From Planctomycetota bacterium (lineage in GTDB: Bacteria > Planctomycetota > Phycisphaerae > Phycisphaerales > Phycisphaeraceae): a stretch of 64,000 nucleotides of DNA. A model generated the notes under the pieces. That model ran no database searches, was not told the origin of the DNA, and worked only from the letters and a program-made list of their open reading frames with translations. Position numbers and translations under genes: made by a program. How positions within the stretch are numbered: the stretch's first letter is position 1; the number at the start of each line of letters is the position of its first letter. This document shows positions 14,031 to 64,000 of this stretch, one piece after another. The DNA is taken from NCBI GenBank assembly GCA_039025195.1, contig JBCCOW010000010.1:7909-71908 (forward strand), in the 5' to 3' direction.

Positions 14031-15560
<1,530 letters not shown>

Positions 15561-42820: not shown

Positions 42821-42873
42821 TCGAGCTTCTTGTGATATAGCCGGGTCGCTACGCGACGCGGCCGTGTATCCGT

Positions 42874-45693: not shown

Positions 45694-45807
45694 GCCTCGG
45701 CCCCATGCGTTCGTCACCACGCTGACCTGGCACGCGGCTTGCCGAGCGGCCGATATAGTCCGCGTGGACCCCTGCATCGCTCCCCCCTCCTGCACCTGCG
45801 ACCCGTC

Positions 45808-47421: not shown

Positions 47422-47747
47422 TGTCCGAACCGCAAACACAATCCACCACCGACCCAGCCGGCCAGCAGGTTCAGCTCCAGCTCGACCGCAGCAAACAGAC
47501 TACCACCTACGTCAACGCCTTCCACACCCAGATGAACACCGACGAGCTCATCCTCGAGCTTGGGCTTAACGCCGGCCCCGTCCCCGGTGCCGAGCCCCAG
47601 CGGGTGCTTGTCGAGCTCAGTGAGCGGCTGATTCTTTCATATCCCACCGCCAAACGCCTCGCCGCCGCCCTGGTTCAGAACGTTAACCAGTACGAGCAGC
47701 GCTTCGGCGAGATCAAGCCCCCCCAGGCACCGTCATCAGCGACCTGA
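47421..47747 (+). CDS. DUF3467 domain protein
   Basis: 108 aa. The ATG overlaps the pckA stop (TGATG). YVNAFHTQMNTDELILELG is typical of DUF3467. Confidence 0.6.
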   Translation: MSEPQTQSTTDPAGQQVQLQLDRSKQTTTYVNAFHTQMNTDELILELGLNAGPVPGAEPQRVLVELSERLILSYPTAKRLAAALVQNVNQYEQRFGEIKPPQAPSSAT

Positions 47748-47790
47748 TGTCCGCCTACTCCCACCTTCTCTTCACCGCCGCCCCGTAGGC

Positions 47791-49254
47791 TCAATGTCGA
47801 GCCAGCCCCGGCAGATCACTCTCCACGTCCACCGCTCCGACGCCTTGCCCACGCGCCACCCGTGCCTTGAACCCTTCAGCCATGACCACGCTCCCCCGCG
47901 TCGTCAAGCGTACCCGCTTCCCCGCCCAACGCTGCTCGAGCAGGTCCATCTCCCCCTCTCGCACGTACCGACACCCTTCCAACTGCACCGTCGTCTGCGT
48001 GCTTTCCCTACCGTCCGCTCCGACCTCGCCCTTGTCGTGCACCAACACGCCGCCCGCCCCCAGCGTTACCCGGCTCAGTGTCACCACATCTACCGGCGTC
48101 CCGATCAACAACACCGGCGAGTCCCCGCCGTGGAACACCCGCACGTCCTCCATCACCAGCCCCCGCTGCACCGGCGGCTCACTGCCGGGGTAGTACGACC
48201 GGCTGTAGCGATCCCGATCGAAATGCACCGAAAAGCCCGGCCGAGGCTTCTCCAGCGTGATGTCTCGGAACACCACATCACGCACCCCCGCCGAAGCCTC
48301 TACGCCCTCCTGCATCATCAGCCACGGGATCCCATCCACCACCTCAACACCCGCGTCGTGCGATGGGCACGTCCGCGACACATACCGCGTCCCGTCCGGC
48401 TCCGCCTGCACGCGGTACAACCGCCCGCCGCCCGGCAGCCCGTCGCCCCGCATCACCACCGTATCCGACTGCTGCACCGACATCCCTCCCCGCCAGTCTC
48501 CCCAAGACCCCGCCAGCACCCGGCAAAAATACCCCACCGATTCGTGCGCTTTCCCCGCCGGTGCCGCGAGGTCGTAACACCGCTCCACGACCCCCTGCTC
48601 GATCCAGCCCAGCTCCGGGTTCGACGTCGCATAGTCGTGAGCATTAAGCGCGACCGCATCATCTCGGGTCTGAAACACGCAGCCCCGGACCGCAAACCGC
48701 TTGCCCCGCCCCAGGTGTACCCCGTCCTTGTCGCCCTTGATGATGCAGTCCTCGACCACCAGGTCTTCGAACGTGCAGACATGCACCCCGAACTGCTGCG
48801 GCCCCAGGTCGTCGCACCGCAGCCCGATCACCCGCACGTCCGACGCATAGAAAAACGCCACCTGCCCCCGCAGCCCCGGCACCGTGTCGCTCCGCACATC
48901 CACACCATTCACCATCAGCCGCAACCCCTCTACCCGAACCCGCCGGTCCCACGTCTTCGTCAACGCGCCCTTGTTCAGAATCACGTGTGAAAACCCGCCG
49001 GCTTCCTCGGTCTTCCGCACGATCACCCCGGCCCCGAACACCAACGCCGTATCACTCCCCATATACACCGTCCCCGCCAGGTCATACACCCCAGCCCGCT
49101 CGACCCGCACCGTCCCCCCAGCCGCGCCCAACGCATCGATCGCCCCCTGCAACGCCGCCCGGTTCGCCACCCCGTTGTTGCCCGGCTCGAACCCCACAAC
49201 CCCCGACCCGCCGACCGCGGGTCCCGTCTCCGTATTTATCGTTGTCTCTGTCAT
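47791..49254 (-). CDS. Right-handed beta-helix (pectin-lyase-fold, GH28-like) protein
   Basis: 487 aa. N-terminus NRAALQGAIDALGAAGGTVRV is typical of pectate_lyase_3-type domains. It has repetitive beta-helix coils with no clear signal peptide. Confidence 0.5.
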   Translation of the reverse strand: MTETTINTETGPAVGGSGVVGFEPGNNGVANRAALQGAIDALGAAGGTVRVERAGVYDLAGTVYMGSDTALVFGAGVIVRKTEEAGGFSHVILNKGALTKTWDRRVRVEGLRLMVNGVDVRSDTVPGLRGQVAFFYASDVRVIGLRCDDLGPQQFGVHVCTFEDLVVEDCIIKGDKDGVHLGRGKRFAVRGCVFQTRDDAVALNAHDYATSNPELGWIEQGVVERCYDLAAPAGKAHESVGYFCRVLAGSWGDWRGGMSVQQSDTVVMRGDGLPGGGRLYRVQAEPDGTRYVSRTCPSHDAGVEVVDGIPWLMMQEGVEASAGVRDVVFRDITLEKPRPGFSVHFDRDRYSRSYYPGSEPPVQRGLVMEDVRVFHGGDSPVLLIGTPVDVVTLSRVTLGAGGVLVHDKGEVGADGRESTQTTVQLEGCRYVREGEMDLLEQRWAGKRVRLTTRGSVVMAEGFKARVARGQGVGAVDVESDLPGLARH

Positions 49255-49282
49255 CGCCGTAACCTAACGGAGTCCACCCACC

Positions 49283-49576
49283 ATGCCCATCACCCACAAC
49301 GCCAACACCACCCGCTTCCTCCTCCCGCTCGACAACGCCGACGATGCTTATCTCCTCTACGAACCGCTCGACCCCAATAGCTGCCCCGACCAGATCGCCT
49401 TCATAAGCGTCTACGTCCCCGAGTCGCACCGCGGCCAGGGCTTCGCCGCCCAGCTTGCCGACGTCGCCTTCGCTCACGCTCGCGCCGCTAGCTGGACCGT
49501 CCACCCCGTCTGCCCATACCTCCGCGCGGCGTATCTCCCCCGCAACCCGCAGCACGCCGACCTTCTCGCTGGCTGA
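49283..49576 (+). CDS. Small GNAT-fold N-acetyltransferase (YjdJ-like)
   Basis: 97 aa. Contains VYVPESHRGQGFAAQL and the C-terminal HPVCPYL motif. Confidence 0.65.
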   Translation: MPITHNANTTRFLLPLDNADDAYLLYEPLDPNSCPDQIAFISVYVPESHRGQGFAAQLADVAFAHARAASWTVHPVCPYLRAAYLPRNPQHADLLAG

Positions 49577-49692
49577 CCGCTCCACGGTTCGGTTTCCAGG
49601 CCGTGTCCCGTAATCTGGAGCCGATCCGCACGTCTAACCCCAGCACCCCACCAAGCCCGCATCCAGACCAAGCGCTCATCAGGAGGTCCCCC

Positions 49693-51024
49693 ATGCCCAA
49701 CCGTCTGCTCCGCCCCGTCCTGACCAGCCTTGCCACGGCGGCTGTGCTCGCCCTGCCCGTCGCCGCCCAACCCAAACAGCCCGGCGGCACCCCCACCACT
49801 CCCAACGGCCCCGTCCAGCCCGGTACCGCTGCTGCACCCTCCGCCGAGCTCTTCCCCGAAGCCGCTACCCTCCCGGCTCCCGACTGGATCAAGCCAGGCC
49901 TCACCCTCACCTGGTCTATGACCTCCATGTCCGGCAACGTCCAGGTCCCCGTCTTCAAACCCAACGCCGACACACCCGCGATCCCCAAGCTCCAATCCAC
50001 CAAGGGCAACAAGACGGGCGCCGCCCTCATCCAGGACTACGTCCTCGCCGTCGAACCCAAGCGTGTGGTCATCATCCGCTCCGTCTACGACAAGCCCAAC
50101 CTCGGCGGCCTCGTCCTCGCCAAGACTCAGGTCATCCTCGGCAGCCCCGGTGCTCCGGGCCTCGAAGGCACACACTGGGTCAACCCCAAGGCCTTCGACG
50201 GACCCCTCAAACGCACCGCCGAAGAGTTCAAAACCCTCCAGGAAGAAATCCGCACCGGGAAGAAGCCCGCCGACCACACCCTCAACCGCGCCTACCGCCG
50301 TGGCCCCATCACCCTCAGCGGTACCCCCTACGACGCCGTCGCCGTCACCGACCGCACCGTCACGAACGGCCAGCAGTCCGCCGAACGCATGCTCACCTAC
50401 GACGCCGACTCCGGCGTCCTTCTCAATGCCGCCCTCGGCCAAAAGCAGCCCAACCGCGGCATGGACGCCTTCATCACCGCCTACCTCGACTTCCTCGGCT
50501 CCGACACCGTCGCCCTCCCCTGGGCCAACGACCCCCTCCCCGCTTGGACTCAAACCCTAAACACCCTCACCTACACCGTCACCACCTCCTCCGTCTTCCA
50601 GGGTATGCCCACCCAGGGCAAACCCGTCACCCTCGAGATGACCCCCGAACTCCGTGGCCCGGACTACCTGATCCTTAACGCTAAACCCAAGGGCCAGCAG
50701 GGCACGCAGGGGGGTAGCGGGCAAAAGATCGCCGCCGGTTCCAACCTCATCGGCCTCGTCCTCCCCGCCTCTGCCGCTAACCGTCTTCGCAAGGGGCAGG
50801 TCCTGCTCAACGACCGCTTCACCGGCTCCAAGACTCATGTCGAATACGTCGGCCCCCTCGACAACGGCCAGCCCGGCTTCATGCTGGTCACCACCGACGC
50901 CAACAGCACCACTCAATCCATTTACGAATCCACCCGCGGCCTGATGGTCTATCAACGCTCCACCACCCAAGACCCTTCCGGTATGACGGTCGTCCGTGAA
51001 ACCACGTTCGTCCGTCATAAGTGA
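49693..51024 (+). CDS. Hypothetical secreted protein
   Basis: The ATG at 49693 lies 6 nt after AGGAGG (49681-49686). Signal peptide LTSLATAAVLALPVAAQ. No recognisable domain. Confidence 0.55.
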   Translation: MPNRLLRPVLTSLATAAVLALPVAAQPKQPGGTPTTPNGPVQPGTAAAPSAELFPEAATLPAPDWIKPGLTLTWSMTSMSGNVQVPVFKPNADTPAIPKLQSTKGNKTGAALIQDYVLAVEPKRVVIIRSVYDKPNLGGLVLAKTQVILGSPGAPGLEGTHWVNPKAFDGPLKRTAEEFKTLQEEIRTGKKPADHTLNRAYRRGPITLSGTPYDAVAVTDRTVTNGQQSAERMLTYDADSGVLLNAALGQKQPNRGMDAFITAYLDFLGSDTVALPWANDPLPAWTQTLNTLTYTVTTSSVFQGMPTQGKPVTLEMTPELRGPDYLILNAKPKGQQGTQGGSGQKIAAGSNLIGLVLPASAANRLRKGQVLLNDRFTGSKTHVEYVGPLDNGQPGFMLVTTDANSTTQSIYESTRGLMVYQRSTTQDPSGMTVVRETTFVRHK

Positions 51025-51034
51025 CCGACCGGTA

Positions 51035-51913
51035 TTACCGGATGCCGCCGTCCCACCAGTCGTTGTTGGCGGTATCGCCCTCGTAGAGGTCGCCCAGACC
51101 AACCGCAACCGCGTCAGGGTCGGAGACGGCGTGAGGCTCGAAACGGACGGATTCGCTGCTGGCGCTCCCGTCGGCCCATGACACATTGGCGGACTGGGCG
51201 GCGTGCCGGCCGTGAACGGTGGGCGAGCCGGAAGTGGTGCCGCGCCCGATAGTGGTGTAGGGCGGCAGCGTGTAGGGGACAGGCTGTTCGAGTTCGTACT
51301 CCGGCGAAAAGACGATATCGCCCTCAAAGGTGTCGAGGTAGATGCCCGCGTCGGCAAACATGACGGTCTCTGAAGTCGGGATGATTTCGGAGAGCCGGAA
51401 GCCGGTCCATGTGGCGTTGCCCAGCGGCGGGCCGGGTACGCCGAGCATACGGCCGTTGTACGCGTAGTCGATCGGCGGGAGTTCTACGCCCAGCGAGGTC
51501 GCCAGCAGGTCGATGTAGGCGGGGTCGACATCGAAGCTCGGACAGCCGCCGATCTGGCTCACGTCATTGAGGTAAGGCCCCAGCATGCTGTTGGCGAAGA
51601 CCGTGTTGACATCGGCCTGCGTCTCCACGACGCACCAAGACACTTTGGCTCCAGCGGTGATCGGGGCACCGGGCGGGAGCGGGCCCGTGAACCCGAACTT
51701 GGAACTGACCGATGCGTGAGGCGGGATGCGCTCGTCGTGATCGCTGGCATAGACATGGGTCGCCAGGCCGATCTGCTTGATGTTTGACAGGCAAGCGGAT
51801 TGCCGTGCCGACTCGCGGGCCGAGCCCAGGACCGGGAGAAGGATGCTGACCAGCAGTGCAATGATGCTGATGACAACCAGTAGTTCGATCAGGGTGAAGC
51901 CGTGCTTCTTCAT
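51035..51913 (-). CDS. DUF1559 protein with prepilin-type N-terminal cleavage/methylation domain
   Basis: The ATG at 51913 gives [21 protein letters not shown]. The downstream [13 protein letters not shown]...YASDHD is typical of the planctomycete DUF1559 / H-X9-DG family. Confidence 0.85.
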
Positions 51914-51986
51914 GGTTAAGACCCGCTGGGAAAGCGAGAGGGCCGGGGACTCAATGCCCGCGACAAGCTGTGACCACCACGCGGCT

Positions 51987-52937
51987 TTAGCGGCGTCGGC
52001 GTTGGACAGGTAAAACACTCAGAGCACAGGCCACAAGCAGAGCCAGGCCTGTGGGTTCGGGCACTACCAGCGACGCCGTGCCCGACCGATTCAGGATGAA
52101 ATTAACGCCTCCAAAGATACCGGCCGAATCCGTACCGCTGACGTCAAAGACGTAACTCAGCGGGTCGCCGAGGCTGCCGCCGGTGAGGGTCCCGGTGTAT
52201 TCCAAGGAGCCAAGACCTGCAAACGGGGCGACAAAGGTATTCACGGTGACGTCGCCGATGAAGTCCATCTCGGTGAGTTCACCGTTGACAAAGGTGAGAC
52301 CGTCGCCGGTCACGTTGCTGATCGAGATCAGGTGATAGAACTGAGCGTTGCCGGCACCGCTACCGTCGTTAAAGGGTGTCTGGACCGGGGAGAGCGGGGA
52401 GATGTTGACCGGGTCCACGGTCCAGTTCGATCGGGGGTCGCCGGTCTGGTCGGGGGTGATCGTGCCATCCCAGGCAAACGTGTTGAAGTCAAAGGTCAGG
52501 GCCGAGACGGGGACCACGCCGCTGCCATTGACGAGTGTGCTGTCGTCGTAATCGATCCGGCCCGAACTCAGGGTCGAGAAGTCGGACTGGGTGATGTTCT
52601 GGTTGTTGACCTGAAAGCTCGACCCGCTAAACCCCGAGCCGAAAGCGGCGAAGGCGGAGTAATCGGACGTGGTGGACTGGGGGCCGGCGATGATGGCGGT
52701 GTAGTTGCCGTTGGCGAGCTGGTAGTTGGGATACTCCGGCAGGCCGTTGTGAAGAGGGTCGAAGTTACCGCTCGCGTCCTTGCCCTCGATGCCGTTCTGG
52801 GTGGTCGAGTTCTTGGCGTTCGACAGCGCGGCAAACCCGGTAGCGGGGCCGGCGAGATCGATGAACTCCGCGGCAAGCAGGCTCGGGGTCCAACCGATGG
52901 CCGCGGCAATACAGGCGGTGGTGAGGGCGTGATTCAT
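51987..52937 (-). CDS. PEP-CTERM sorting-domain surface protein, paralog 1
   Basis: 316 aa with a signal peptide. C-terminal [25 protein letters not shown] (PEP motif, TM segment, Arg cluster). It aligns with 53047-53997 over its full length. Confidence 0.85.
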
Positions 52938-53046
52938 GAGGTTTCCGTTGTTTTTACGAGCCGTAGCGGTGGGGCAGCCGATATGGAGGCCATCCGCCAG
53001 AACAAAAGCGGGTCAGGCGATTCCTCGCGTGACCCGAAAGGCTTGA

Positions 53047-53997
53047 TTACCCCTGTTCATCGAAGTCTTCACCCCGCCGGCGACGGCGAGCCAAGGTGAT
53101 CAGGCCGCCGAGGCCCAGCAGTGCGAGGGCGGCGGGTTCGGGGACGAGCACCGCGGTGCCTGAACGGTTCATCAGGAAGTTGGTGTTGCTGAAGAAGGCC
53201 AGGGTATCCGTGCCGCTGACGTTGAACTCGTAGCCGAGGCCGTCCGCGGTTAGTGTCCCGGTGTACTCGAAGGAGCCGAACGCGGCGAACGGCGCGACAA
53301 ACGCATCGACGGTGATGTCACCCGCGAAGTCGATATCGGTGAGCTCGCCATCGACGAAGGTCAGGCCGTCGCCCGTCACGTTGTCGATCGAGATGAGGTA
53401 ATAGACCTGGGCGTTGCCGGCCCCGGAGCCGTCGTTGAACTTGGTGAAGACCGGGGAGAACGGCGAGACATCGATCGGCGCGTTCGGGAGCTGGAAGTTC
53501 GACCTCGGCTCGGCATCGACGACCCCGTCCCACTCGAAGGTATTGAAGTCGAAGCTCAGATCGGCCACCGGGATGTTGACGTTGCCGACGGTCGAGTAGA
53601 GCGAGTTATCGAAGCTGATCCGGCCGGCGCTGAGGCGCGAAAAGTTGGCCTGCGACACGGTCTGGTTGTTGACCGTAAAGGTCGGGCCGGTGAAACCAGA
53701 GCCGAAGTTGGCGAAGTCGGAGTAGTCCGAGCCGGCGTCGAGGGGTGAAGCGATGATGGCGGTGAAGTTCCCGTTGGCCATCTGGTAGTTGGGGTAGTCG
53801 GGCAGGCCGTTGTGGTTGGGGTTGAAGTCGCCGTTGGCGTCCAGGCCCTCGATGCCGTTCTGGCTGCTCGAGTTCTTGAAGTTGGACAGGGCGGCATAAC
53901 CGGTGGCGGGGCCGCCGAGCTCGACCGCGAATTCGGCGTGTACGGTGGTGCTGGCAGCAAGGGTCAGGCAGGTGGCGAGGGTCAGCTTCTGAATCAT
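53047..53997 (-). CDS. PEP-CTERM sorting-domain surface protein, paralog 2
   Basis: 316 aa with a signal peptide. C-terminal VPEPAALALLGLGGLITLARRRRR. It shares blocks such as GPATG(F/Y)AALSN, NGLP(E/D)YPNYQ(L/M)ANGN(Y/F)TAII and [11 protein letters not shown] with paralog 1. Confidence 0.85.
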   Translation of the reverse strand: MIQKLTLATCLTLAASTTVHAEFAVELGGPATGYAALSNFKNSSSQNGIEGLDANGDFNPNHNGLPDYPNYQMANGNFTAIIASPLDAGSDYSDFANFGSGFTGPTFTVNNQTVSQANFSRLSAGRISFDNSLYSTVGNVNIPVADLSFDFNTFEWDGVVDAEPRSNFQLPNAPIDVSPFSPVFTKFNDGSGAGNAQVYYLISIDNVTGDGLTFVDGELTDIDFAGDITVDAFVAPFAAFGSFEYTGTLTADGLGYEFNVSGTDTLAFFSNTNFLMNRSGTAVLVPEPAALALLGLGGLITLARRRRRGEDFDEQG

Positions 53998-54070
53998 GGT
54001 GTCTTTCTCGTGCGTCTAACGCATTGGGTCCGTGAAATAATGTGAAAAGGGAAAGTAAGTAGGGGGGCGC

Positions 54071-54937
54071 TTACGCGTCGGGCTTGCGTCGCCGTCCGAG
54101 GAAGGTGGCCGCGCCGAGGCCGATCAGGGCCAGGGACCCGGGTTCGGGGATGACGAAGGAGGACGACAGGGTGCCGTTGAGGTCCCAGCCAGCCTGCGGT
54201 GCGGCGAAGCCGAGATTGATCAGGTCTTGGGCACCGGTCAAATCCAGCTCACCGCTCGGAAGCAGGGGGACATTGACCAAGACATCCCATTCGTTGCCGG
54301 ACAGGACAAGATCGCCGGTGAACACGAAGTCGCCGCCGCCGAACCCTCCGACGTAGGTGAAGGCGATATCTGCGGTCACATCGAACGAATCGACCGCGCC
54401 ATCGACGAAGGTGATCGTGCCGTTGATGTTGCTGATCGCGGTGTCGTAGCCCATATTTGTCACGAAGTCGCCGTCAGCGACATCGGCGTCGAAGTCGAAA
54501 TCGAGGGCTGTGACATCGCGTACTTCCGTACCGGCTCCCGTTACCGGGATGCTGTCGTCGAAGGTCAGCGTGTAGGAATCCGAGAAGTCGTTGTCGTTCA
54601 CGAAGATGTTGGCCGCGCCGAACAGGTTGGACGGGTTGGTGATCTGGAAGAATCCGTCGTTCGTGCCCGGGACCGATTCGGTAGGCACGGGAGGCGTCAC
54701 GCCGAAGACATCCGGCGTGCCGGGATCGTTGTCGTCATCAAAGAACGAGGTGTGCTGCTGCCCCAACTCGCCGAAGGCGTCGGAGAAGTAGTCGTACCAC
54801 CGGGAGCCGTCGGCCGCGGTGAGGTCAAGGCTGATCGTGTTCTCCGCCTGAGCGGTGCCCACGCAGAGCCCGGCATGGGTCGCGACCGCCAGAGCTGCAA
54901 GCCGAGCTGTAGAAACGTAGGGGGACTTGGAAATCAT
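54071..54937 (-). CDS. PEP-CTERM sorting-domain surface protein, distant paralog 3
   Basis: The ATG at 54937 gives the signal peptide ...ALAVATHAGLCVGTAQA. C-terminal IPEPGSLALIGLGAATFLGRRRK. The module ISNINGTITFVDGAVDSFDV resembles [21 protein letters not shown] of paralogs 1 and 2. Confidence 0.8.
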   Translation of the reverse strand: MISKSPYVSTARLAALAVATHAGLCVGTAQAENTISLDLTAADGSRWYDYFSDAFGELGQQHTSFFDDDNDPGTPDVFGVTPPVPTESVPGTNDGFFQITNPSNLFGAANIFVNDNDFSDSYTLTFDDSIPVTGAGTEVRDVTALDFDFDADVADGDFVTNMGYDTAISNINGTITFVDGAVDSFDVTADIAFTYVGGFGGGDFVFTGDLVLSGNEWDVLVNVPLLPSGELDLTGAQDLINLGFAAPQAGWDLNGTLSSSFVIPEPGSLALIGLGAATFLGRRRKPDA

Positions 54938-55595
54938 CTCTCTCCAATGTGTGGAAGGGTGGAAAATCATGGCCAGGGGGTGGCCGCGAAGGTGCTCCGC
55001 CAGCAGCTTCTGACAGCACGCTACCAGTACTGCGACTGCTTCGCAACAGGGTCTCGCAAGGTCTCGCGCATTTTTTTTGTTTTACTCGCGCGACTAGGGT
55101 GGATGCCCTAAGTCGCTTCTGCTTAGTGTTTAAGGTCAGGCCATGACAGCGGCGCTGGGCTGGCATGAGCCACCTGATAAATCAGCATGACGCCCCAGCA
55201 GGAGCTGCTGGTCGTTGTTTAGCGGCCTCCCTGCCGCGAGTCAGACCGCGTCGATTGCCGAGGGATTGTTGGTGCTCGTCAGGAGCGATCGATAGACGTG
55301 CCGAGGGCGGTGTTTAGCCTCCCCAGGTGGGCCTAATGAGCAGCCCGGCGTTGACGTGGGTGTAGGGTTGGGACACACCACCTGATGAGCGTGTGGGTGC
55401 GTCACCTGGACGGCACGGGCACCGGCGACGAGGACTCCAGGGTGTAGCACGTGACCTTGGCCGAACTCCAAACGAAACGCGACGCCATCAGGCCGCAGGC
55501 CTGGTGTCCGATCAAGCATCGCGCGGCAAGCCTAGCGGAGTCGATGGTGGTGCGGGTGCAGGTGGGGTTCGGCTTCGGCGGTTGATCTGCTCTGC

Positions 55596-55867
55596 TGACC
55601 GGTGAATTAGTTTGCTGCGCGGGTCATTTGCGGCGTTGGACCGGTCAAACGAGTCATTCGACCGGTCATGAGCGAAGAAAGACCGGTAGAACGCGGCATT
55701 TGACCGGTCATCTGAGACGTTTGACTGGTACAGAAACACAAATGACCCTGTTTTTTTGCACTTGACCGGTCAAACGCGGCGATTGACCGGTGATGTGGCG
55801 TGAAACACCGGTAAGGAGAGCTATTTGACTGTCATTAATGCGGAGTTGACCGCTGCGCAGTTCGACA
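55596..55867. repeat. Phased tandem array: 13 units of 21 bp with palindromic core TGACCGGTCA
   Basis: Core centres fall every 21 bp. One interval is 20 bp, and the two around the 9-nt core at 55826 are 20.5 and 21.5 bp. Perfect cores are at 55701 and 55763, and one-mismatch cores at 55596, 55638, 55659 and 55784. Spacers are also related (AACGCGGCATT / AACGCGGCGAT / TTTGCGGCGTT). Confidence 0.9.
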
Positions 55868-56026
55868 CGTCGTACGTGTCATTGACCTGAAGCACTACGC
55901 TGACAAAAGGCACCAGCTTTGTCTGTGCTACCGAGGAGACTGGGTGCGATGGGTCACAGGAGATGTTCGAGCGTGCTGTAACACTGACTGACAAAACAGG
56001 TTTTTTCAGTGCCACTCGCCGGGTGG

Positions 56027-56713
56027 TTAGGGATAGTCCAAGGCTGCGGGAAGATCGTCGAGAGAGCGACAACAACGCTCCGCATCCGGATGGGTCCTAC
56101 GCACCAAAACAGCTGTTATCCCAGCCCGCGCTGCGCCGCTAATGTCCGCTGCCCAGCTATCACCCACCATCACAAACTCTACTGCGTCTTTAAAATGCTC
56201 TTGGACCAGCTTGAACGCCAGCGGATTCGGTTTTTCCACGCCGGTCACCCCGGATGAAAAGACCGCATCAAATCGGGGCGAGAGACCCAACGCTTTAAGC
56301 AGCTCAGCAAGCTCTGGGACATGATTGGAGAGGATGGCATGACGCCAGCCATTCGACGACAGCACATCCAGGCAAGGCAACACATCTTCAAAAACACGCC
56401 ACCGATCGGGTCGCGTGTAGACCTGACGCACACGGCGAGCAATGGCTGAAGCTTTCGTTTCTTCAACCCCGAGGGCGGCCGTGCAAGCCTGCGTGAAAAG
56501 GGGTTCCAGAGATCGCCACCAATGCGCGGCGTCAATATCGGGACCGCGGACGACGTCTGGTGAGTGCCAGGGGAACCCCTGATGGAGGTGTGGGCGCAAG
56601 GCTTCGCGTTCAGCGGAGACTCCCTCGATCTCAGCAGCTTCTGCCAACGCCCCAGTCCACATCCCGCTGCGTTCTGCGAGCGTACCGTCAAAGTCCCAGA
56701 TAATGCATCGCAT
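56027..56713 (-). CDS. HAD-superfamily hydrolase (subfamily IA-like)
   Basis: The ATG at 56713 gives MRCIIWDFDGTL (motif I DxDGT). Motif II is ILSN and motif IV is MVGDSWAADI. GC is about 48-55%. Confidence 0.8.
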   Translation of the reverse strand: MRCIIWDFDGTLAERSGMWTGALAEAAEIEGVSAEREALRPHLHQGFPWHSPDVVRGPDIDAAHWWRSLEPLFTQACTAALGVEETKASAIARRVRQVYTRPDRWRVFEDVLPCLDVLSSNGWRHAILSNHVPELAELLKALGLSPRFDAVFSSGVTGVEKPNPLAFKLVQEHFKDAVEFVMVGDSWAADISGAARAGITAVLVRRTHPDAERCCRSLDDLPAALDYP

Positions 56714-56923
56714 CGAATACTTAGAATACAAGGCTCAGTTACCGGCCGCAGATCGCTCCCGTGTCACAATCGGTTTACTCTGAAACGCCTGCAGTTTTCC
56801 GTTCCGGCACTGCGCCACTGAATGAATCGCGGGGAGCGACTTTCCTGCACTGGCCGACAGAGCTTACGAGTGCCAACTTGCTGGCCAGAGCCGAAACAAG
56901 GAAGCGTTAGATCAAGCATCTGC

Positions 56924-57487
56924 CTAACCGGCGTCACTTGCTAGTAGCGACCGCACCTGTGCATTGCTCATCGCTGTACCCAACTTCCCTTCCATGTACC
57001 GCCACGATATTTCGTGGTGTTCAGCGTCATGGGAGTCGATGCATTCACTGGCAAGGATGATTTCGTAATCTCGCTGGTATGCGTCCACCACTGTGCTGCG
57101 AACACAGGCATGGGTATTGATTCCTGCGATCAGAAGTCGATCGGGTTTCAAACGTGCGAACAGTTTGTCGAGATGTGTGCCAAAGAAAGCGCTGTACCGT
57201 TTCTTGACTACATACGTGTCAGACAACCCTGCTTTTAGTTCAGGCAAGAGCGAAGCGCCCGGGGTGCCTGCCACGACAATGTGTATTCCTTTGGCGCGAA
57301 CTTCACGTGAGGCGTCGCTCAGGTCGGGCATGAACTCTTGTGTTACCCAAATGATATGACTGTCTCCAGCGCGGCAAATCTCCGCAAGCTCATTGGTACA
57401 GTGCGTCAGTTTCGCACGATGGTTCTTCAGTCGCTCATGCCGGAAGAAATCCTCCTGCATATCGATGATTAACAGGACGCTATTCAT
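56924..57487 (-). CDS. Isochorismatase-like cysteine hydrolase
   Basis: The ATG at 57487 gives MNSVLLIIDMQEDF. Catalytic Cys context LLIAGINTHACVRSTVVDA. GC is about 50%. Confidence 0.8.
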   Translation of the reverse strand: MNSVLLIIDMQEDFFRHERLKNHRAKLTHCTNELAEICRAGDSHIIWVTQEFMPDLSDASREVRAKGIHIVVAGTPGASLLPELKAGLSDTYVVKKRYSAFFGTHLDKLFARLKPDRLLIAGINTHACVRSTVVDAYQRDYEIILASECIDSHDAEHHEISWRYMEGKLGTAMSNAQVRSLLASDAG

Positions 57488-57565
57488 GAGTTCTGTGATT
57501 GGACGCCAAATGTTGAAGACTTGGTTGCCGAGAGTACCGAGAGTCGGCATCCGATCTATTCGGGA

Positions 57566-58354
57566 TTATCCATCGCCGGTATCGCCGGTATCGCCGGTCA
57601 ACTGCCGTTGGTGGTGAGTTGTGGCACCGTTGTCGACAGCCGGTCCGAGATAACGGCTGTCTAAAGCGACTTCGCTGACACCCGTTACGGATCGGGAAAC
57701 AATGTATGCGCCTGATTCCGCCCGGGACGATACGACACCGGCGAGTTCTGTTCCGACGTAATACAATGCGACTCCGTCATCCGCAGCTACACCATTCAGC
57801 AGTTGACCTTTGGCCACCATCGCGTGATAGGCGGGGCGACGGTCTGACTCGCCGTCAAAGTGCGGGCAGGCGCTGCCAGGCAGGAATCCAAGGCCGTCGT
57901 TCAGCGCGGCAAGGGGACCAAAGGAGTCGGTCACACCGCCTTCGAACCAACAGATCATGCCAGCACTCAAGCCGGTAAGGATCACGCCGTGCTCCCATGC
58001 TTCTCGAAGGATGCGGTCTACGCCGTGTAGTCGCCAGATGGCGAGCATATTGGCGGTGTTCCCTCCTCCGATATAGATCACTTGCTGCCCCAAGAGAAAG
58101 TCGCGTAGATTCGTTTGTTTACGCTGGAACAAAGCGAGATGAGACGCCTCAGCACGGGCTTTGCGGAATACGAAGTAGAACTTGTCGATGTACCACTGAG
58201 CATCACCGCTCGCGGTGGGCACGAAACAGACACGAGGCCGCTCCACACCGGTCAAGCCGAGTGTGTAGTTGTCCAGAAGTGGTACATCCGGCTCCATGGA
58301 GAAGCCGCCGCCGCCGAGTGCGACGATCTGTTTTTTGATCCGGTGATTTGTCAT
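57566..58354 (-). CDS. Peptidase S51 / type-1 glutamine-amidotransferase-like (dipeptidase E / cyanophycinase family)
   Basis: Starts at the ATG at 58354. Contains IVALGGGGF, IYIGGGNTANML and the nucleophile context LTGLSAGMICWFE. The C-terminus is (TGD)3G. Confidence 0.8.
   Translation of the reverse strand: MTNHRIKKQIVALGGGGFSMEPDVPLLDNYTLGLTGVERPRVCFVPTASGDAQWYIDKFYFVFRKARAEASHLALFQRKQTNLRDFLLGQQVIYIGGGNTANMLAIWRLHGVDRILREAWEHGVILTGLSAGMICWFEGGVTDSFGPLAALNDGLGFLPGSACPHFDGESDRRPAYHAMVAKGQLLNGVAADDGVALYYVGTELAGVVSSRAESGAYIVSRSVTGVSEVALDSRYLGPAVDNGATTHHQRQLTGDTGDTGDG
57572..57598. repeat. 3 x 9-bp perfect tandem repeat ATCGCCGGT (encodes the TGDTGDTGD C-terminal tail)
   Basis: Units at 57572-57580, 57581-57589 and 57590-57598 are identical. 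Confidence 0.9.
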
Positions 58355-58464
58355 TGTGAAGAACCTCACGTCAACCGGTTTTGTACTCGGTTGTCATTGG
58401 GAGTCGACGCCCAACCGATGACCTAATCCCTCGAAGGCGATGCCGGTTAACCGCGTTACACCAT

Positions 58465-60489
58465 TTAGACCGGGGCAGATGTGTCGCCAATGGGTAGAAG
58501 TTCGTCTTCGATGTAGGGGTCGAAGGTGGGTTTGGGGTTGCGGCCGTCGAGGAGGTCGGCGGTGCGTTTGTCGTGACGGAGGCGATCGAGGGTGGCGGCG
58601 TAGCCCATGCGGTGGATGAAGGGGCCCATGCCCCCGGAAGATGAGGTTTCGCCATTCAATCCGGTTTGTGATGGGGATTCCTTGAGGTACCAGTCGAAGA
58701 GGGTGGCGCAGACGTCGGCGACGCGGTCGCGGGGGACCATGGATAGGTAGTGTTTTTCGCCGTCGGTGAGGTAGTGGCCCTGGGTGGAGCCGTCCTCGGA
58801 GCCGCCGAGCTTGAGGGCGTAGTTGTCGCCGCCGGAGCCGACCCAGCCGAGGGTTTTGGTGGCGGGTCGGAAGCATTGTCGTTCGCAGCCGGTGATGCCG
58901 ATGGATTCGGCGAGGTGGCCGTAGCCGCGGTCTTCGAGCTGGTCGAGGAGCTCGGGCTCGAACTGCTCGGAGTCGGTGTAGGAGAGCCGGCAGGTGGGGA
59001 GGCCGACGCAGGCGCCGGAGAGGACGCGGAGGGTGGAGTAGGTTTTGCCGCGGCGGGTGCCGTGGCCGAATTCGGCGAGGCACCCCCGGAAGTCCTCCTT
59101 TGCGTCTTCTTCGATATTCGTAAACAGCAGGTCTTGGTTGGCGGTGACCATGACTTCGGTGCCGGGGAAGCGGTTGAGGGCTTCTTTGATCATGGAACGG
59201 AGGCGGGGGTGGTCGGTGGTCGAAGCCCGGGGGTGGCTACCCCCGGGCTTTAGGGGTTTGTTGCGTTCGGCGGCGAGTTTGTCGGCGTCGATGTAGCGTT
59301 CGTCGACGAGGCGGCCGCACTCGATGTAGGCGCCGTAGGCCCACTTGTTGTTGGACTCTTGGAGGGTCCAGCCGTGGTGCAAATCGCGGATACCGGGGAG
59401 GGCGTCGGGGCCGGTGCCTTCGCAGCGGGGGTCGTTGCCGGAGAAGTCGGCGCCGAGGTTTTTGACTTCGTTGCGGTACCAGTCGATGCCCTGTTTCCAG
59501 ACGACGTATTTCATGCGGGCCCAGACGCGGTTCTTGCGGTCGCCCCATTGCTTGTGGACGTCGACGATGGCGCGGAGGCCGGGGAGGAGTTGATCGGGGG
59601 TGAAGGTGCCGAAGGGCTTGCCGTGGGCGGCGAAGGTGGGCTTGCCTTTTTTCTCGCCCTGGCCGCCGCCGATGTAGACCTGGTAGGCGACGACGTGAGC
59701 GTCGGATCCGGTGCCCTCGACGATGGGGGCGATGCCGATCTCGTTGGTGCGGATTTCGGAGCAGTTGTCGTAGGTGATGCTGCCGGTGTCGGGGTTGCGG
59801 TGGGCGGCGGAGAAGGCGATCTTGAACTTGCGGTTGAGGAGCTGCTTGCCGTAGTCGTATTGGGCGTCGGGGTCGGCGATGTGGTCGGGGTTGACGGCGA
59901 AGACCTGGATGTGGGAGGAAGCGGGGAGGCGGAAGTATTCGCCGAACTGGTGGGCGAGCTCGAAGCTGTTGGCGCCGGGGATGGTGGTGAATTTGGAGAG
60001 GGGGCAGCCCATGACGTTGCGGACGTTGTCGCCGCAGCCGTTGAGGGTGTAGAAGCCGGTGGAGGCGAGTTTCTGGACGAGGGACATGACCTGTGGCTTG
60101 AGGAGCCAGTGGTATTGGATGTTTTGTCGGGTGGTGAGCCGGAGGGAGGGTCGGCCGTAGGGGTTGTGGTCGCAGAACTCGTCGGCGACTTCGTCGAAGA
60201 CGGCCCATTGGTCGCGGGTGAAGGCGCCGCCGCCGGGGATGGTGGCGCGGACCATGTACATCCAGTCTTTTTCGGTGCCGGTTTTGGCGCGGTTGTATTC
60301 GAGGTAGAGGCCGTGGGACTTGGAGAGGAACTCGGACTCTTTTTCGACGTCGGGGGTTTGGTGGTCGCGGTAGCGTTCGGGGAGGGGGCCGACGACGCCG
60401 TTGGAGTTGATTTTGAAGTGCTCGTCGGCGGAGAGCTGGTCGGCGGGGGTGTTGAGGAGGGGTTGGGGGAGTTTGGTGGGGCGGGGCAT
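58465..60489 (-). CDS. Sulfite/nitrite reductase hemoprotein (ferredoxin-dependent sulfite-reductase-like, siroheme/4Fe-4S)
   Basis: 674 aa. NIR_SIR ferredoxin-like and 4Fe-4S/siroheme domains. Cys cluster contexts are NGCGDNVRNVMGCP, GACVGLPTC and ITGCERQC. Confidence 0.88.
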   Translation of the reverse strand: MPRPTKLPQPLLNTPADQLSADEHFKINSNGVVGPLPERYRDHQTPDVEKESEFLSKSHGLYLEYNRAKTGTEKDWMYMVRATIPGGGAFTRDQWAVFDEVADEFCDHNPYGRPSLRLTTRQNIQYHWLLKPQVMSLVQKLASTGFYTLNGCGDNVRNVMGCPLSKFTTIPGANSFELAHQFGEYFRLPASSHIQVFAVNPDHIADPDAQYDYGKQLLNRKFKIAFSAAHRNPDTGSITYDNCSEIRTNEIGIAPIVEGTGSDAHVVAYQVYIGGGQGEKKGKPTFAAHGKPFGTFTPDQLLPGLRAIVDVHKQWGDRKNRVWARMKYVVWKQGIDWYRNEVKNLGADFSGNDPRCEGTGPDALPGIRDLHHGWTLQESNNKWAYGAYIECGRLVDERYIDADKLAAERNKPLKPGGSHPRASTTDHPRLRSMIKEALNRFPGTEVMVTANQDLLFTNIEEDAKEDFRGCLAEFGHGTRRGKTYSTLRVLSGACVGLPTCRLSYTDSEQFEPELLDQLEDRGYGHLAESIGITGCERQCFRPATKTLGWVGSGGDNYALKLGGSEDGSTQGHYLTDGEKHYLSMVPRDRVADVCATLFDWYLKESPSQTGLNGETSSSGGMGPFIHRMGYAATLDRLRHDKRTADLLDGRNPKPTFDPYIEDELLPIGDTSAPV

Positions 60490-60727
60490 GGCGGTTGGTG
60501 GGTGGTGAGGGGTCGGTTTGAGGTGGGGCGGGGCGGGCTGGTTTTTTGCGTTTGGGTCGCAGAAAGGTTGTGTGTGACACGGTTTGTGTCGGATCGTTGA
60601 GTGTAGACGATGGGGTGTGCGTGGGGTAGGGGTTTTGGGGGTTGGAGTTTTCGGACGTGGGGCGGGGCGGGGGAGGGGTTTGGGGGATTGGGCCGATGTT
60701 CACGGGGATATCGATGCGGGTGGATTT

Positions 60728-61663
60728 ATGGAGACGCAAGCGATGAGTCAGGCAGGACAGGTGACGCCGGGGCAGCGGTTGGATGCGATTCTGGCGCCGT
60801 TGCTGGCGGAGCGGGCGGCGTTGGAGGAGGCGGTGGCGGCGGAGGAGGCGAAGATCGCGGCGATCCAGGCGAAGCTGAGCCAGTGCCACGCGGCGATCGG
60901 GACGCTGGCGGGCCAGATGGCGAACACGGTACGAGCGTCGGCGGGGGCGGACCCGGTATTGTCGGCGATCTTTAATCCCCCGGCGACGGTGGTGGGTGGG
61001 CAAGCGGCGGCTCCGGCAGCGCCCGCGGCTCCGGCGGCTCCTTTGGCGACACCCGAACCTGTGCCGGTGGCTCCCGCTGCGGCGACACCCGCCCCACCCG
61101 CCTCACCTGCAGTGGTGCCCGAGCCTGCGGTGCAGGCTGCACCGGTCGCAGCCTCGGCGGCCCCGCCAGTTTCAGCTGCACCGGCACCTGCACCGCCAAT
61201 CGCAGAGCCGGTACCGGCCGCGGTCGCGGCGGCGGCGGCGAGTGTGGTGGTGGATGAAGCGGAGACGGTGGTGGTGGGTGAGCCGGCGGCGGTGGCGGCT
61301 GCTTCGGCTCCGGCGGTGGAACCCGAAGTCGCACCTGCTGTGGCGGAACCGGTTGTCGAGGCCGCTGCGGCTACAGCTGAGCCCGAACCGGTGGCGACGC
61401 CTGCAGAAGCAACGCCTGCGGCCCAACCCGTAACACCTGAAGCTGCGGCTGAGGAAGACGATGCAGACGTGACGCCGGAGGAGGCGGCGATGCTGGCGGA
61501 GATGGGGATGTCAGCGGATGCGTTGTCGGCACAGCTCGCGGCGAACGCGGCGGAGGAGGTTGAGGAGCCGGCACCTGAGACGGCATTGGAGGAGAAGCCG
61601 AAGAACGCGGTAGACCCCGCGGCGCTGGACCGGATCTTGGCGGAGGCGAAGGCGGCGGGATGA
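60728..61663 (+). CDS. Hypothetical Ala/Pro-rich low-complexity protein with N-terminal coiled-coil segment
   Basis: Starts at the ATG at 60728. The ~60-aa helical N-terminus is followed by about 170 aa of A/P/V/E repeats (AAPAAPAAPAAP...) and an acidic C-terminus. Coding status is supported mainly by length and codon bias. Confidence 0.5.
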   Translation: METQAMSQAGQVTPGQRLDAILAPLLAERAALEEAVAAEEAKIAAIQAKLSQCHAAIGTLAGQMANTVRASAGADPVLSAIFNPPATVVGGQAAAPAAPAAPAAPLATPEPVPVAPAAATPAPPASPAVVPEPAVQAAPVAASAAPPVSAAPAPAPPIAEPVPAAVAAAAASVVVDEAETVVVGEPAAVAAASAPAVEPEVAPAVAEPVVEAAAATAEPEPVATPAEATPAAQPVTPEAAAEEDDADVTPEEAAMLAEMGMSADALSAQLAANAAEEVEEPAPETALEEKPKNAVDPAALDRILAEAKAAG

Positions 61664-61718
61664 GTCCGAGTGGTTGGCGGGACGGCTGCGGGTAGGTGTG
61701 CCCGCAGCTAGCTAAAGA

Positions 61719-61748
61719 CAACGCCCGATCGGACTGGATCGGGCGTTG
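61719..61748. terminator. Hairpin between convergent genes (candidate bidirectional terminator)
   Basis: CAACGCCCGATC-GGACTG-GATCGGGCGTTG, a 12-bp perfect stem. A T-run follows 10 nt downstream on the plus strand. Confidence 0.5.
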
Positions 61749-61773
61749 AGCGGTTGGGTTTTTTGATTGTGCG

Positions 61774-62298
61774 TTACGCGGCGGGGGCGAGGCCGAGCTC
61801 GTTCTTGAGCTGTTCGCACCAGTCCTTGACGCGTTGTTCGGTGAGCTCGGGCTGGCAGTCGTCGTCGCAGGCGAGGCCGCAGAACTGGCCGTCGATGATG
61901 CCTTTGGAGGCTTCGAACTCGTGGGTGTCGGGGTCGGTGAAGCCGATCTTGCCTTCGGCACCGCGTTCGAGCATCTTGAGGTAGACGATGCCGAGGGCGT
62001 CCTGGTAGGTGTCGGGGTAGCCGGCCTGATCGCCGGTGCCGAAGAAGGCGACCTTGATGCCGGCCATATCGACCTCGTCGAGCTGGTCGTAGATGTCCTG
62101 CCAGTCGTACTGGATCTCGCCGACGTCCCAGGTGGGGATGCCGCAGAGCAGCAGGTCGTAGCCTTCGAGGTCTTTAGGTTCGATCTGGGAGACGTCTTCG
62201 TAGGTGTCGATGAGGTCTTCGCCGAACTCGTCGCGGATTTGCTCGGCGACGGCTTCGGTTTTGCCGGTGCAGGTGCCGTAGAACAGTCCGATTTTCAT
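61774..62298 (-). CDS. fldA: Long-chain flavodoxin
   Basis: 174 aa. FMN-phosphate loop MKIGLFYGTCTGKTE, then GIPTWDVGE and FFGTGDQAGYPD. Confidence 0.9.
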   Translation of the reverse strand: MKIGLFYGTCTGKTEAVAEQIRDEFGEDLIDTYEDVSQIEPKDLEGYDLLLCGIPTWDVGEIQYDWQDIYDQLDEVDMAGIKVAFFGTGDQAGYPDTYQDALGIVYLKMLERGAEGKIGFTDPDTHEFEASKGIIDGQFCGLACDDDCQPELTEQRVKDWCEQLKNELGLAPAA

Positions 62299-62417
62299 AG
62301 CGTGTTGCTCCTTTGCTGAATGCGAGAGTTTAGGCGGTTGCGATCGGTTTTCAAGCGGTTCTGGGGCATGAACCGGCGATGCGTTGCATTGCGGCGATCA
62401 CGGCTGCGGGGTCTAGG

Positions 62418-63470
62418 TCAGACACGGTGCGGGTGCGGGCCAAACTTGGCCTCATAGAACGGTTGCACGAAAGTGCCAGGGGGTGCGGCTTCGTCGATCT
62501 TGCGGCGGTCGTCGTCGGTGAGCTGGAGATCGAGAGCGGCGAGGTTGTCGGTGAGCTGGTTGAGGGTACGGGGGCCGATGATGGGGCTGGTGATGCCGGG
62601 CTGGTTCATGCACCAGGACAGGGCGACCTGGGAGACGGGGCGGCTGTGGGCATCGGCGATAGCTTCGAGGGTTTCGAGGATGTCGAAGGCGCGGTCGTTG
62701 TCGAGCATGGTGCGGCGGGGGTGGGTGGAGCCTTTGCCGAAGCGGGCGTCGCCGGGGCCGAGGTTGTTGCGTTTGTATTTGCCGGAGAGGAAGCCGCCGG
62801 CGAGGGGGGACCAGGGGATCAGGGCCATGCCGAAGGTCTGGGCCATGGGGATGAGCTCGCGTTCGATGCGGCGGTCGAGGGGGTGGTAGGGGGGTTGCTC
62901 GGTGACGAAGCGGTTGAGGGCGAGTTTTTCGGCGGTCCAGTGGGCTTCGACGAGCTGCCAGGCGGCGAAGGTGGAGGTGCCGAGGTAGCGGACCTTGCCG
63001 GCGGTGACGAGGTCGTCGAGGGCGCGGAGGGTTTCGTCGATAGCGCACTCGGGGTGGGGGCGGTGGATCTGGTAGAGGTCGATGTAGTCGGTTTGGAGGC
63101 GTTTGAGGGAGGCCTCGCACTGCTGAATGATTTGCCTCCGGGAGTTACCGAAGCGGTTGGGGTTGAGTTTGTCCTGGAGGGCGGTGGCTTTGGGATTGCC
63201 GGTGCCTTCTTTGAACATGTTGCCGTGGCACTTGGTGGCGAGGACGATGTGGTCGCGGTGTCCGTTGCGTTTGAGGGCTTCGCCGGTGACGACCTCGGCG
63301 TTGCCGGTGGCGTAGACGTTGGCGTTGTCGAGGAAGTTGACGCCGGCGTCGATGGCGTGGTCGATGATCTGTTGGACTTCGTCGGGGGGCGTGCGGCCGC
63401 CGAACATCATGCAGCCGAGGCAGAGGGGGGAGACGCGGATGCCGGTTCGGCCGAGGTAGCGGTATTCCAT
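62418..63470 (-). CDS. Aldo/keto reductase
   Basis: The ATG at 63470 gives MEYRYLGRTGIRVSPLCLGCMMFG. Contains the DNANVY and YIDLYQIHRP motifs. The 5' extension in the track ORF has no support. Confidence 0.9.
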   Translation of the reverse strand: MEYRYLGRTGIRVSPLCLGCMMFGGRTPPDEVQQIIDHAIDAGVNFLDNANVYATGNAEVVTGEALKRNGHRDHIVLATKCHGNMFKEGTGNPKATALQDKLNPNRFGNSRRQIIQQCEASLKRLQTDYIDLYQIHRPHPECAIDETLRALDDLVTAGKVRYLGTSTFAAWQLVEAHWTAEKLALNRFVTEQPPYHPLDRRIERELIPMAQTFGMALIPWSPLAGGFLSGKYKRNNLGPGDARFGKGSTHPRRTMLDNDRAFDILETLEAIADAHSRPVSQVALSWCMNQPGITSPIIGPRTLNQLTDNLAALDLQLTDDDRRKIDEAAPPGTFVQPFYEAKFGPHPHRV

Positions 63471-63501
63471 GGGTTGCTCGTGCGGTTGTGACGGAGGGCC
63501 T

Positions 63502-63524
63502 GCGACGCGTCGCGTCGCGGCTAG
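63502..63524. repeat. GC-rich palindromic element GCGACGCGTCGCGTCGCGG(T/C)TAG, copy 2
   Basis: Matches 26008-26030 at 22 of 23 positions. It overlaps the stop codon of the upstream membrane-protein gene. Confidence 0.8.
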
Positions 63525-64000
63525 GAGATCGTACTGGGTTGTTTGTGGGTGGCGTCGCGGAGGAGGAGGGTACCGGTGATCGTGAAGACGATGGCGAGGA
63601 TTGTCGCAGCGGTCCACTGGTGGAGGACGAGGGTCATGGGGAGGAGGAAGGTGGAGACCTGCCAGGTGAGGGCGAGGGCGAGTCGGGTGAGGTCGGCGGT
63701 GTGTTCGCGCTGGTCGGGGGCTTTCCAGTCGCGGGGCCAGAGGCCGAGGGGTTTGATCTGGTGGTAGAAGCGTTTCAGTTGGTCGTTGGGGGTGGCGGGG
63801 GCGAGGTAGGTGCCGGCGACGCAGCCGAGGAGTGAGGCGAGGCCGACGGTGGAGAGGGTGAAGATGTCGGTGAACTGGCCATTCTGAATCAGTGGGCCGA
63901 ATTGCTGGAGGGGGATCATTTCACTGCCAGCCAGGGAGTAGTCGTAGAAGCCAAGCGTGGCGGGGCTCTTGACGAAGGTGAGTCCGAAAGCAGCGGCGAA
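63521..64000 (-). CDS. Partial CDS (C-terminal part; 5' end beyond the window): multi-TM transporter, sodium:solute-symporter-like
   Basis: The reading frame stays open from 63919 to the window edge (hand translation ...FAAAFGLTFVKSPATLGFYDYSLAGSEMIPL...). TM segments are hydrophobic. The family call is tentative. Confidence 0.45.
   Translation of the reverse strand, partial: FAAAFGLTFVKSPATLGFYDYSLAGSEMIPLQQFGPLIQNGQFTDIFTLSTVGLASLLGCVAGTYLAPATPNDQLKRFYHQIKPLGLWPRDWKAPDQREHTADLTRLALALTWQVSTFLLPMTLVLHQWTAATILAIVFTITGTLLLRDATHKQPSTIS

Follow-up and report, generated by a model that had tools for sequence, protein, structure and literature searches.

Positions 55596–55867 of a 64,000-nt stretch of planctomycete DNA (contig JBCCOW010000010.1 of assembly GCA_039025195.1; hereinafter the window) hold a tandem array of 13 units of 21 bp, in which copies of the 10-bp palindrome TGACCGGTCA, several of them decayed, follow one another at a spacing of two turns of the DNA helix over ~270 bp of non-coding sequence. 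The host is a marine Phycisphaerae-type planctomycete, with a sulfite reductase that shares 72% identity with its counterpart in Phycisphaera mikurensis and 76% with that of an Algisphaera metagenome-assembled genome. From the geometry of the array, the pattern of conservation within its units and its periodic base composition, we propose, with about an even chance of being right, that it serves or once served as a cis-acting platform on double-stranded DNA, where a dimeric, sequence-specific protein with its gene elsewhere in the genome would bind cooperatively.

When the array is laid out in rows of 21 nt, all 13 units fall into a single 21-bp register with two 1-bp slips, one unit being 20 bp long and one core 9 nt, and the positions and sequences given for them in a preliminary description of the window were reproduced throughout. 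The hexamer ACCGGT at the heart of the core recurs eight times within 55598–55807 (starting at 55598, 55640, 55661, 55682, 55703, 55765, 55786 and 55807), again in a common 21-bp register, with a single −1 shift placed between 55703 and 55765. At no more than one mismatch, TGACCGGTCA is found at seven sites in the window, as compared to 3.0 ± 1.7 in shuffled sequences; six of these seven lie inside 198 bp of the array, while the remaining one, at 15283, is within the gene for S-adenosylhomocysteine hydrolase. Thus, both the clustering of the sites and their register are far beyond chance. The units differ in quality: six are strong (at most one mismatch), units 5, 7, 11 and 12 are moderate (about three mismatches or a 1-bp deletion), and units 2, 8 and 13 are marginal (three to four mismatches), each of the marginal units still being improbable at its exactly phased position. 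The best units had been said to extend to a 12-bp palindrome, TTGACCGGTCAA; this form is perfect at 55762 and in no other unit. Tandem Repeats Finder reports a 42-bp period over 55622–55730 (2.6 copies, 70% matches), and a repeat search of the region returned copies 42 bp apart together with several extended palindromes, of which those at 55639–55667 and 55681–55709 resemble the longest one listed in the table below. As the independent Logan assembly of run SRR22824307 matches window positions 47068–58623 base for base, the array is not an assembly artifact.

The units are not uniformly conserved along their length. Counting mismatches to the consensus across the 13 aligned units gives 26 in 129 core positions as compared to 74 in 142 spacer positions (Fisher p = 5e-8). 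Columns 2–8 of the unit, which spell GACCGGT, are 83–100% conserved, as against 31–69% for the spacer columns, and these seven columns together hold 10 mismatches, a count that no seven adjacent columns matched in any of 20,000 row-wise permutations (P < 5e-5). The spacers had earlier been portrayed as related to each other and less conserved than the cores. The difference in conservation is thus borne out, but the spacers are weakly related, with a plurality sum of 68 as compared to 58.5 ± 3.5 in random columns (P = 0.008), an excess due to the five units 2, 3, 5, 6 and 9, whose spacers are of the type AACGCGGCRTT. Most spacers are not palindromic. Those of the AACGCGGCRTT type (55606–55616, 55627–55637, 55648–55658, 55690–55700 and 55773–55783) are themselves odd palindromes and, as these are the best-kept spacers, the ancestral 21-mer would have had two dyad axes 10.5 bp apart; this may reflect ancestry or a second binding face, the sole ideas we can offer for it.

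Beyond what the preliminary description had recognized, the array displays a very strong 10.5-bp periodicity of A/T versus G/C content, to which the spacers contribute despite their nearly random sequence and which runs through 55594–55866, or ~26 helical turns, with almost no 21-bp fundamental. The normalized power at 10.5 bp is 21 in the array, as compared to 0.1–1.5 in flanks of equal length. Shuffling the spacer positions within units lowers the 10.5-bp power from 23.1 to 6.3 ± 2.6, and none of 5,000 such shuffles reaches the observed value. The content of A/T versus G/C is heterogeneous among the spacer columns (chi-square p = 4e-4), with A/T at the spacer edges and G/C in the middle. At columns 11, 13, 20 and 21, which flank the core, A and T exchange freely, and the A/T character is kept in 10–12 of the 13 units. 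The retention of A/T-ness without base identity argues for a constraint on the geometry of the double helix, such as its groove width or bendability, rather than on RNA pairing or codons, and the 10.5-bp pattern suggests intrinsically curved or wrap-prone DNA.

In the mechanism that we envisage, one dimer would occupy each dyad, contacting the core GACCGGTC with its A/T flanks, and the 21-bp spacing would align all dimers along the same helical face. A/T patches at intervals of 10.5 bp would favor bending or wrapping of the DNA, and a continuous nucleoprotein filament or superhelix might thereby form over the ~270 bp. In ParR–parC, SopB–sopC, omega-type centromeres and cooperative repressor arrays, dimers assembled on dyads likewise bend or wrap the DNA into a higher-order complex. 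Of the binding platform put forward in the preliminary description we therefore retain the phased dyads for a dimeric protein, which agree with the core conservation, the register and the 10.5-bp pattern, but not the suggestions of plasmid iterons or partition sites, the defining partners of which were not found. The array probably arrived with accessory DNA, and our best guess is that it had a centromere-like or operator-like function in a former mobile element and has since become orphaned and partly eroded, given that no cognate gene is nearby and about half of the units have decayed. Slightly less likely, in our view, is a long-range repressor or insulator platform for the adjacent PEP-CTERM operon. 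It seems unlikely that the array is an active nucleation site from which a wrapped, filament-like complex of a regulator with its gene elsewhere silences or insulates the PEP-CTERM operon or marks the acquired segment.

The accessory setting is apparent from the nearest available relative (L333; GCA_039025855.1), which is 84–87% identical in nucleotide sequence over window positions 42576–49569 and 58492–63872, and thus on both sides of the array. Between these blocks the window carries S51 peptidase, isochorismatase and HAD hydrolase genes, the array, three PEP-CTERM genes, a DUF1559 gene and one unknown, all in a segment replaced in L333 (its positions 11981–15001) by two unknowns and a CheW-response regulator. 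This variable hotspot sits between conserved sulfite-reductase and GNAT-acetyltransferase genes. No site within one mismatch of the core is present in the 22 kb of L333. The comparison with a close relative, which had been proposed as a check, thus finds both the array and its flanking low-GC genes to be missing from it and places the array in a strain- or species-specific accessory segment of the hotspot. Homologs of the PEP-CTERM protein (47–50% identity; L203 and L204) and of the HAD hydrolase (at most 56%; L331 and L332) are encoded at non-syntenic loci that lack the motif and have upstream regions not alignable to those of the window, and the three more distant sulfite-reductase relatives (L334–L336) are not syntenic.

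Composition adds to this picture. The G+C content (GC) falls from 62–67% over 55200–55600 to 48–58% exactly at the array start, at a resolution of 150 bp, and stays low to ~58450. The GC at third codon positions (GC3) is 0.57–0.63 in the HAD, isochorismatase and S51 genes as compared to 0.8–0.9 in the neighboring genes, which points to their horizontal acquisition, probably a recent one. The array itself lies in a gap of ~1.05 kb bounded on one side by the stop of the HAD hydrolase gene (56027) and on the other by the start of the first PEP-CTERM gene (54937 or 54970), with all flanking genes on the minus strand; its earlier placement in a lower-GC block between these genes is correct.

The same core in comparable geometry is found in other DNA, and the earlier statement that no described element shares this motif and geometry needs softening on two counts. 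Metagenome contigs were scanned with TGACCGGTCA-N11-TGACCGGT, a pattern that imposes the 21-bp spacing, and among the matches listed there are loci with three to five phased cores, the spacers of which are unrelated to those of the array. At one of these (L304, 363–468), five (C/T)GACCGGTC(A/G) dyads with a 21–22-bp spacing and A/T-tract flanks are located downstream of a 107-aa open reading frame (ORF) and a truncated ParM-type partition ATPase, the fragment of which matches PHROG 691 ‘partition protein’ (E = 1.7e-15) and the ParM structure 6izr in the PDB (E = 4e-3), with Pfam below threshold. These dyads are probably an uncharacterized parC-like centromere with the same core. In two homologous high-GC elements, TGACCGGTCA dyads have a tyrosine integrase gene on one side and an HTH_17 excisionase-type gene on the other (five dyads in L287, 1335–1440; three in L320, 3659–3722), where they may be recombination-directionality or regulator sites. 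In a further contig (L319), an ORF that resembles an ABC-transporter ATPase by eye only has three dyads upstream of it. Phased GACCGGTC arrays hence occur in mobile-element modules and in at least one promoter. Among viral contigs (L325–L360), perfect TGACCGGTCA pairs within 30 bp favor start-to-start distances of ~11, 21–23 and 32–34 bp (18 of 27 pairs), that is, multiples of the helical repeat, the independence of these contigs not being established. A scan of viral contigs for three ACCGGT copies returned, among the matches listed, only tandem repeats that look coding by sequence, and a blastn search of plasmid and phage collections with the array gave no match.

The other count concerns single operators with this core. 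In Burkholderia, the site through which the TetR-type repressor PaaR acts is ACCGACCGGTCGGT (PMC2770484), and the Thermus TetR-family protein SbtR (TGACYrnnyRGTCA) and TTHB023 bind TGACC...GGTCA palindromes (PMC7022988). Dimeric helix-turn-helix (HTH) proteins that read this core therefore exist.

Several observations weigh against a protein-binding platform. No DNA-binding, partition, replication or recombination gene is encoded within ~8 kb of the array, in keeping with the earlier remark that no cognate DNA-binding gene is visible beside it, and no rep, par, integrase, transposase or TetR-type gene was recognized among the scanned ORFs of the window. With roughly half of the units intact and two 1-bp slips in the register, selection may be relaxed or gone. 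None of the relatives examined has an orthologous array, and the window contains no second copy of the motif outside coding sequence. At 626 bp or more from the nearest start codon, the array is unusually distant for a simple operator, and promoter and terminator scans of it gave nothing significant and no promoter-like site. Lastly, the proteins adjoining the analogous arrays, including the ParM-like and 107-aa ORF products of L304, have no tblastn match in the window and, with the spacing there imposed by the search, these analogs show plausibility rather than relationship.

Some of this would equally suit a functionless minisatellite, in which an ancestral palindromic unit of 21 or 42 bp multiplied by slippage and has since been eroding, with the core conservation as a by-product, for instance of repeated slippage or gene conversion starting from the core. 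Such an origin would account for the clearly related members among the spacers, the 42-bp period, the degenerate ends and center of the array, the missing partner gene and the absence of the array from the nearest relative. Moreover, 21-bp GACCGGT minisatellites are common in bacteria: a scan of genome contigs for GACCGGT-N14-GACCGGT-N14-GACCGGT yielded at least 120 loci. However, these are generic, near-perfect copies of whole units, unlike the array, and in none of those listed are there two or more copies of TGACCGGTCA. Uniform neutral decay is rejected by both the mismatch counts and the column permutations given above, the core being ~80% intact while the spacers are almost randomized, and the alternation of A/T and G/C in the spacers has outlasted their base identity. 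Hence, we regard a mere minisatellite as rather unlikely. We rate as lower still the chance that the array acts in single-stranded form, either as DNA or within a transcript (the 3′ tail of the S51–isochorismatase–HAD message or a long 5′ leader of the PEP-CTERM message, both from the minus strand), with hairpins like those of REP (repetitive extragenic palindromic) elements and BIMEs (bacterial interspersed mosaic elements) as a stabilizer, attenuator or structure-specific site. The array does lie between two co-directional operons, it has three or four extended palindromes of 29–39 nt, and its predicted folding surpasses that of shuffled sequences on both the plus (−126 kcal/mol, z = −5.5) and minus (−116 kcal/mol, z = −7.0) strands. 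Strong folding is, however, automatic when a palindrome is repeated. The structured RNA offered as an alternative in the preliminary description is disfavored by two features: A and T replace each other freely and without compensation beside the core, and most spacers lack palindromy. A 10.5-bp periodicity of composition would, moreover, be meaningless for an RNA. There is also no Rfam match (best E = 2.5–7.7, far below gathering scores), no terminator-like T-run and no dispersed copy in the 64 kb.

An origin as iterons of a plasmid-type replicon, or as the end or att-arm sites that an integrated element kept when it lost its other genes, is improbable. The tandem order and the ~21–22-bp unit would fit, as would the location precisely on the border of a compositionally foreign island and the comparable cluster in the integrase–sites–excisionase arrangement of L287 and L320. 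Nevertheless, apart from the lack of rep, integrase and transposase genes among the scanned ORFs already mentioned, the nearest DnaA-box-like sites are more than 12 kb from the array, no tRNA gene adjoins it (the only one of the window being 14 kb away), and a search for direct or inverted repeats at the island boundaries gave no convincing ones. The units, moreover, show dyad symmetry instead of a direction, and their number, 13, is far above what is usual for arm or end sites. More improbable yet is a pseudogene of a coding heptad repeat with Thr-Gly or Asp-Arg-Ser every seven residues. The length of 21 bp does equal seven codons, partial ORFs with TG- or DRS-containing repeats traverse part of the array, and most of the 21-bp arrays listed from other genomes look coding, as judged by their sequence alone. 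Here, however, no frame is open across the array, just as the preliminary description had noted a repetitive ORF through part of it only, and the reading frame changes at each of the two 1-bp slips. The conserved block consists of seven contiguous bases and lacks a 3-bp periodicity, the partial ORFs have no Pfam matches, the array flanks show no tblastx similarity to relatives, and no gene is called in the independent assembly.

Table. Coordinates (window positions) of the array, its parts and the surrounding features.
Feature	Position	Strand	Remarks
Whole array	55596–55867		13 units, each of 21 bp except one of 20 bp; one 9-nt core; core consensus TGACCGGTCA
Left sub-array	55596–55731		Units 1–7, of which 1, 3, 4 and 6 strong; holds the 42-bp super-period (Tandem Repeats Finder)
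Central degenerate A/T-rich segment	55732–55762		AGAAACACAAATGACCCTGTTTTTTTGCAC; carries a 1-bp phase slip and divides the array in two
Right sub-array	55763–55857		Units 9–13; 9 and 10 strong, 11–13 decaying
Longest extended palindrome	55759–55797		19-nt arms, 84% complementary; two cores and the palindromic spacer AACGCGGCGAT
Separate hairpin	55864–55880		GACACGT-CGT-ACGTGTC, 7-bp stem and 3-nt loop, directly past the last unit; no T-run, not terminator-like
First of three PEP-CTERM genes (P0001)	54071–54937	−	288 aa; array 659–930 bp upstream of its start
Low-GC island	55590–58450	−	48–60% GC, atypical codon GC3; array, HAD, isochorismatase and S51
HAD hydrolase	56027–56713	−	
Isochorismatase	56924–57550	−	
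S51 peptidase	57566–58369	−	
Variable segment	49570–58491		8.9 kb; not in L333, which has 3.0 kb of unrelated genes instead

Among the genes of the island, the HAD hydrolase has its closest homolog at 56% identity among 5.8 billion proteins, and the arrangement of the three genes is kept at none of the homolog loci examined. The S51 gene carries at its 3′ end a perfect threefold tandem repeat of 9 bp (ATCGCCGGT; 57572–57598), which encodes a C-terminal TGDTGDTGD. In the gap that holds the array, the small ORFs have no Pfam matches and mostly non-coding GC profiles, and none is called as a gene in the independent assembly. One of them, a 44-aa ORF at 55451–55585, stops 10 bp before the array and has host-like GC at the three codon positions (0.64/0.51/0.80) with no homology and no gene call; it may be what remains of a gene at the boundary of the island. 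Outside the island and its segment, the window looks like ordinary chromosome, the ORFs scanned with Pfam being mostly housekeeping genes, and includes genes for GMP synthase, dehydroquinate synthase, an LpxA-like acyltransferase, S-adenosylhomocysteine hydrolase, RsmG, phosphoenolpyruvate carboxykinase, HemD/CobA, sulfite reductase, flavodoxin and an apparent multisubunit cation antiporter. It further codes for a histone H1-like Hc1 protein, a nucleoid protein of the chlamydial type (37373–37693; Pfam PF07432, E = 3e-21), and for an ArsR-type HTH domain fused to an S-adenosylmethionine-dependent methyltransferase (12908–13978), directly upstream of the S-adenosylhomocysteine hydrolase gene (14031–15560).

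To our knowledge, almost no cis-regulatory elements have been characterized in Phycisphaerae, and we know of no large phased operator platform described in Planctomycetota. If a protein does bind the array, its 13 sites would offer a bait for finding a sequence-specific DNA-binding protein in this group. In that case it would further provide a natural instance of a long, intrinsically bendable platform with helical phasing on a chromosome rather than a plasmid, and might shed light on the control of PEP-CTERM surface-protein genes or of newly acquired DNA. Were it only a relic, it would still mark, within a recombination hotspot, the boundary of an island gained horizontally.

Among known systems, the type II centromeres, namely the parC sites bound by ParR, are similar in that they too are tandem, helically phased short repeats, which in their case recruit dimers cooperatively and wrap DNA. 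In plasmid R1, parC comprises two sets of five iterons and, like the array, consists of two sub-arrays parted by a central segment; that of pSK41 is made of 20-bp tandem repeats. The resemblance of the array to parMRC loci in having tandem phased repeats is one of geometry only: it is flanked by HAD, isochorismatase, S51 and PEP-CTERM genes rather than by parM and parR, it is not upstream of a par operon, and it resides on no plasmid or phage replicon, its flanks being syntenic with a related chromosome-type contig. Further, its units are 10-bp dyads alternating with variable 11-bp spacers, in contrast to the near-identical repeats of parC. The sopC site of the F plasmid, with 12 nearly identical repeats of 43 bp, and the type Ib centromeres, with their ParG and omega arrays, likewise form cooperative nucleoprotein complexes on ~10–12 tandem units with a short inverted repeat, and 43 bp is close to twice 21 bp. 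However, their motifs differ from that of the array, and they are plasmid-borne and adjoin parA/parB-type genes.

Theta-plasmid iterons, such as those of R6K, RK2 and pPS10, are repeats of 17–22 bp at a spacing of ~22 bp and share with the array the unit length, tandem order and helical phasing. They are, however, directional and near-identical and lie beside rep, an A/T-rich unwinding region and DnaA boxes, whereas the units of the array are dyad-symmetric with diverged spacers. The two core arms are unequally kept in the array (G2 in 11 of 13 units versus C9 in 6 of 13), an asymmetry that is not significant, and its A/T-richer stretch measures only 31 bp. REP elements and BIMEs are comparable as extragenic imperfect palindromes between co-directional operons with strong predicted hairpins. 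They differ in being dispersed in hundreds of copies without strict phasing, as opposed to a single locus in 64 kb with a strict 21-bp register and a 10.5-bp periodicity, and neither another copy of the array nor a RAYT gene was seen in the window. A CRISPR array was also considered and rejected, as it needs repeats of 23–47 bp with spacers of similar length, as against a 10-bp core and an 11-bp spacer here, along with cas genes, of which there are none. Tn7-like ends, att arm sites, integron attC sites and phase-variation repeats were set aside because their defining genes or geometry are absent.

Palindromic operators of about 14–16 bp, as recognized by dimers of TetR-type repressors, are also comparable in motif. 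The center of the PaaR operator is GACCGGTC, and SbtR and TTHB023 share the TGACC half-site; all are dimer-binding dyads of a size similar to those of the array. The PaaR operator differs from the array in its flanks (TT/AA versus ACC/GGT), and in the others the half-site spacing or the flanks differ. Moreover, such operators are single or double sites between the −35 and −10 elements, beside the targets of their regulator, and do not form a phased array of 13 units. Since the defining neighbor genes were sought and not found, the array is not assignable to a par centromere, an iteron origin or a TetR operator. In its general architecture, it nonetheless falls into a class already known, that of dyad binding sites in phased arrays; its built-in helical periodicity is unusual.

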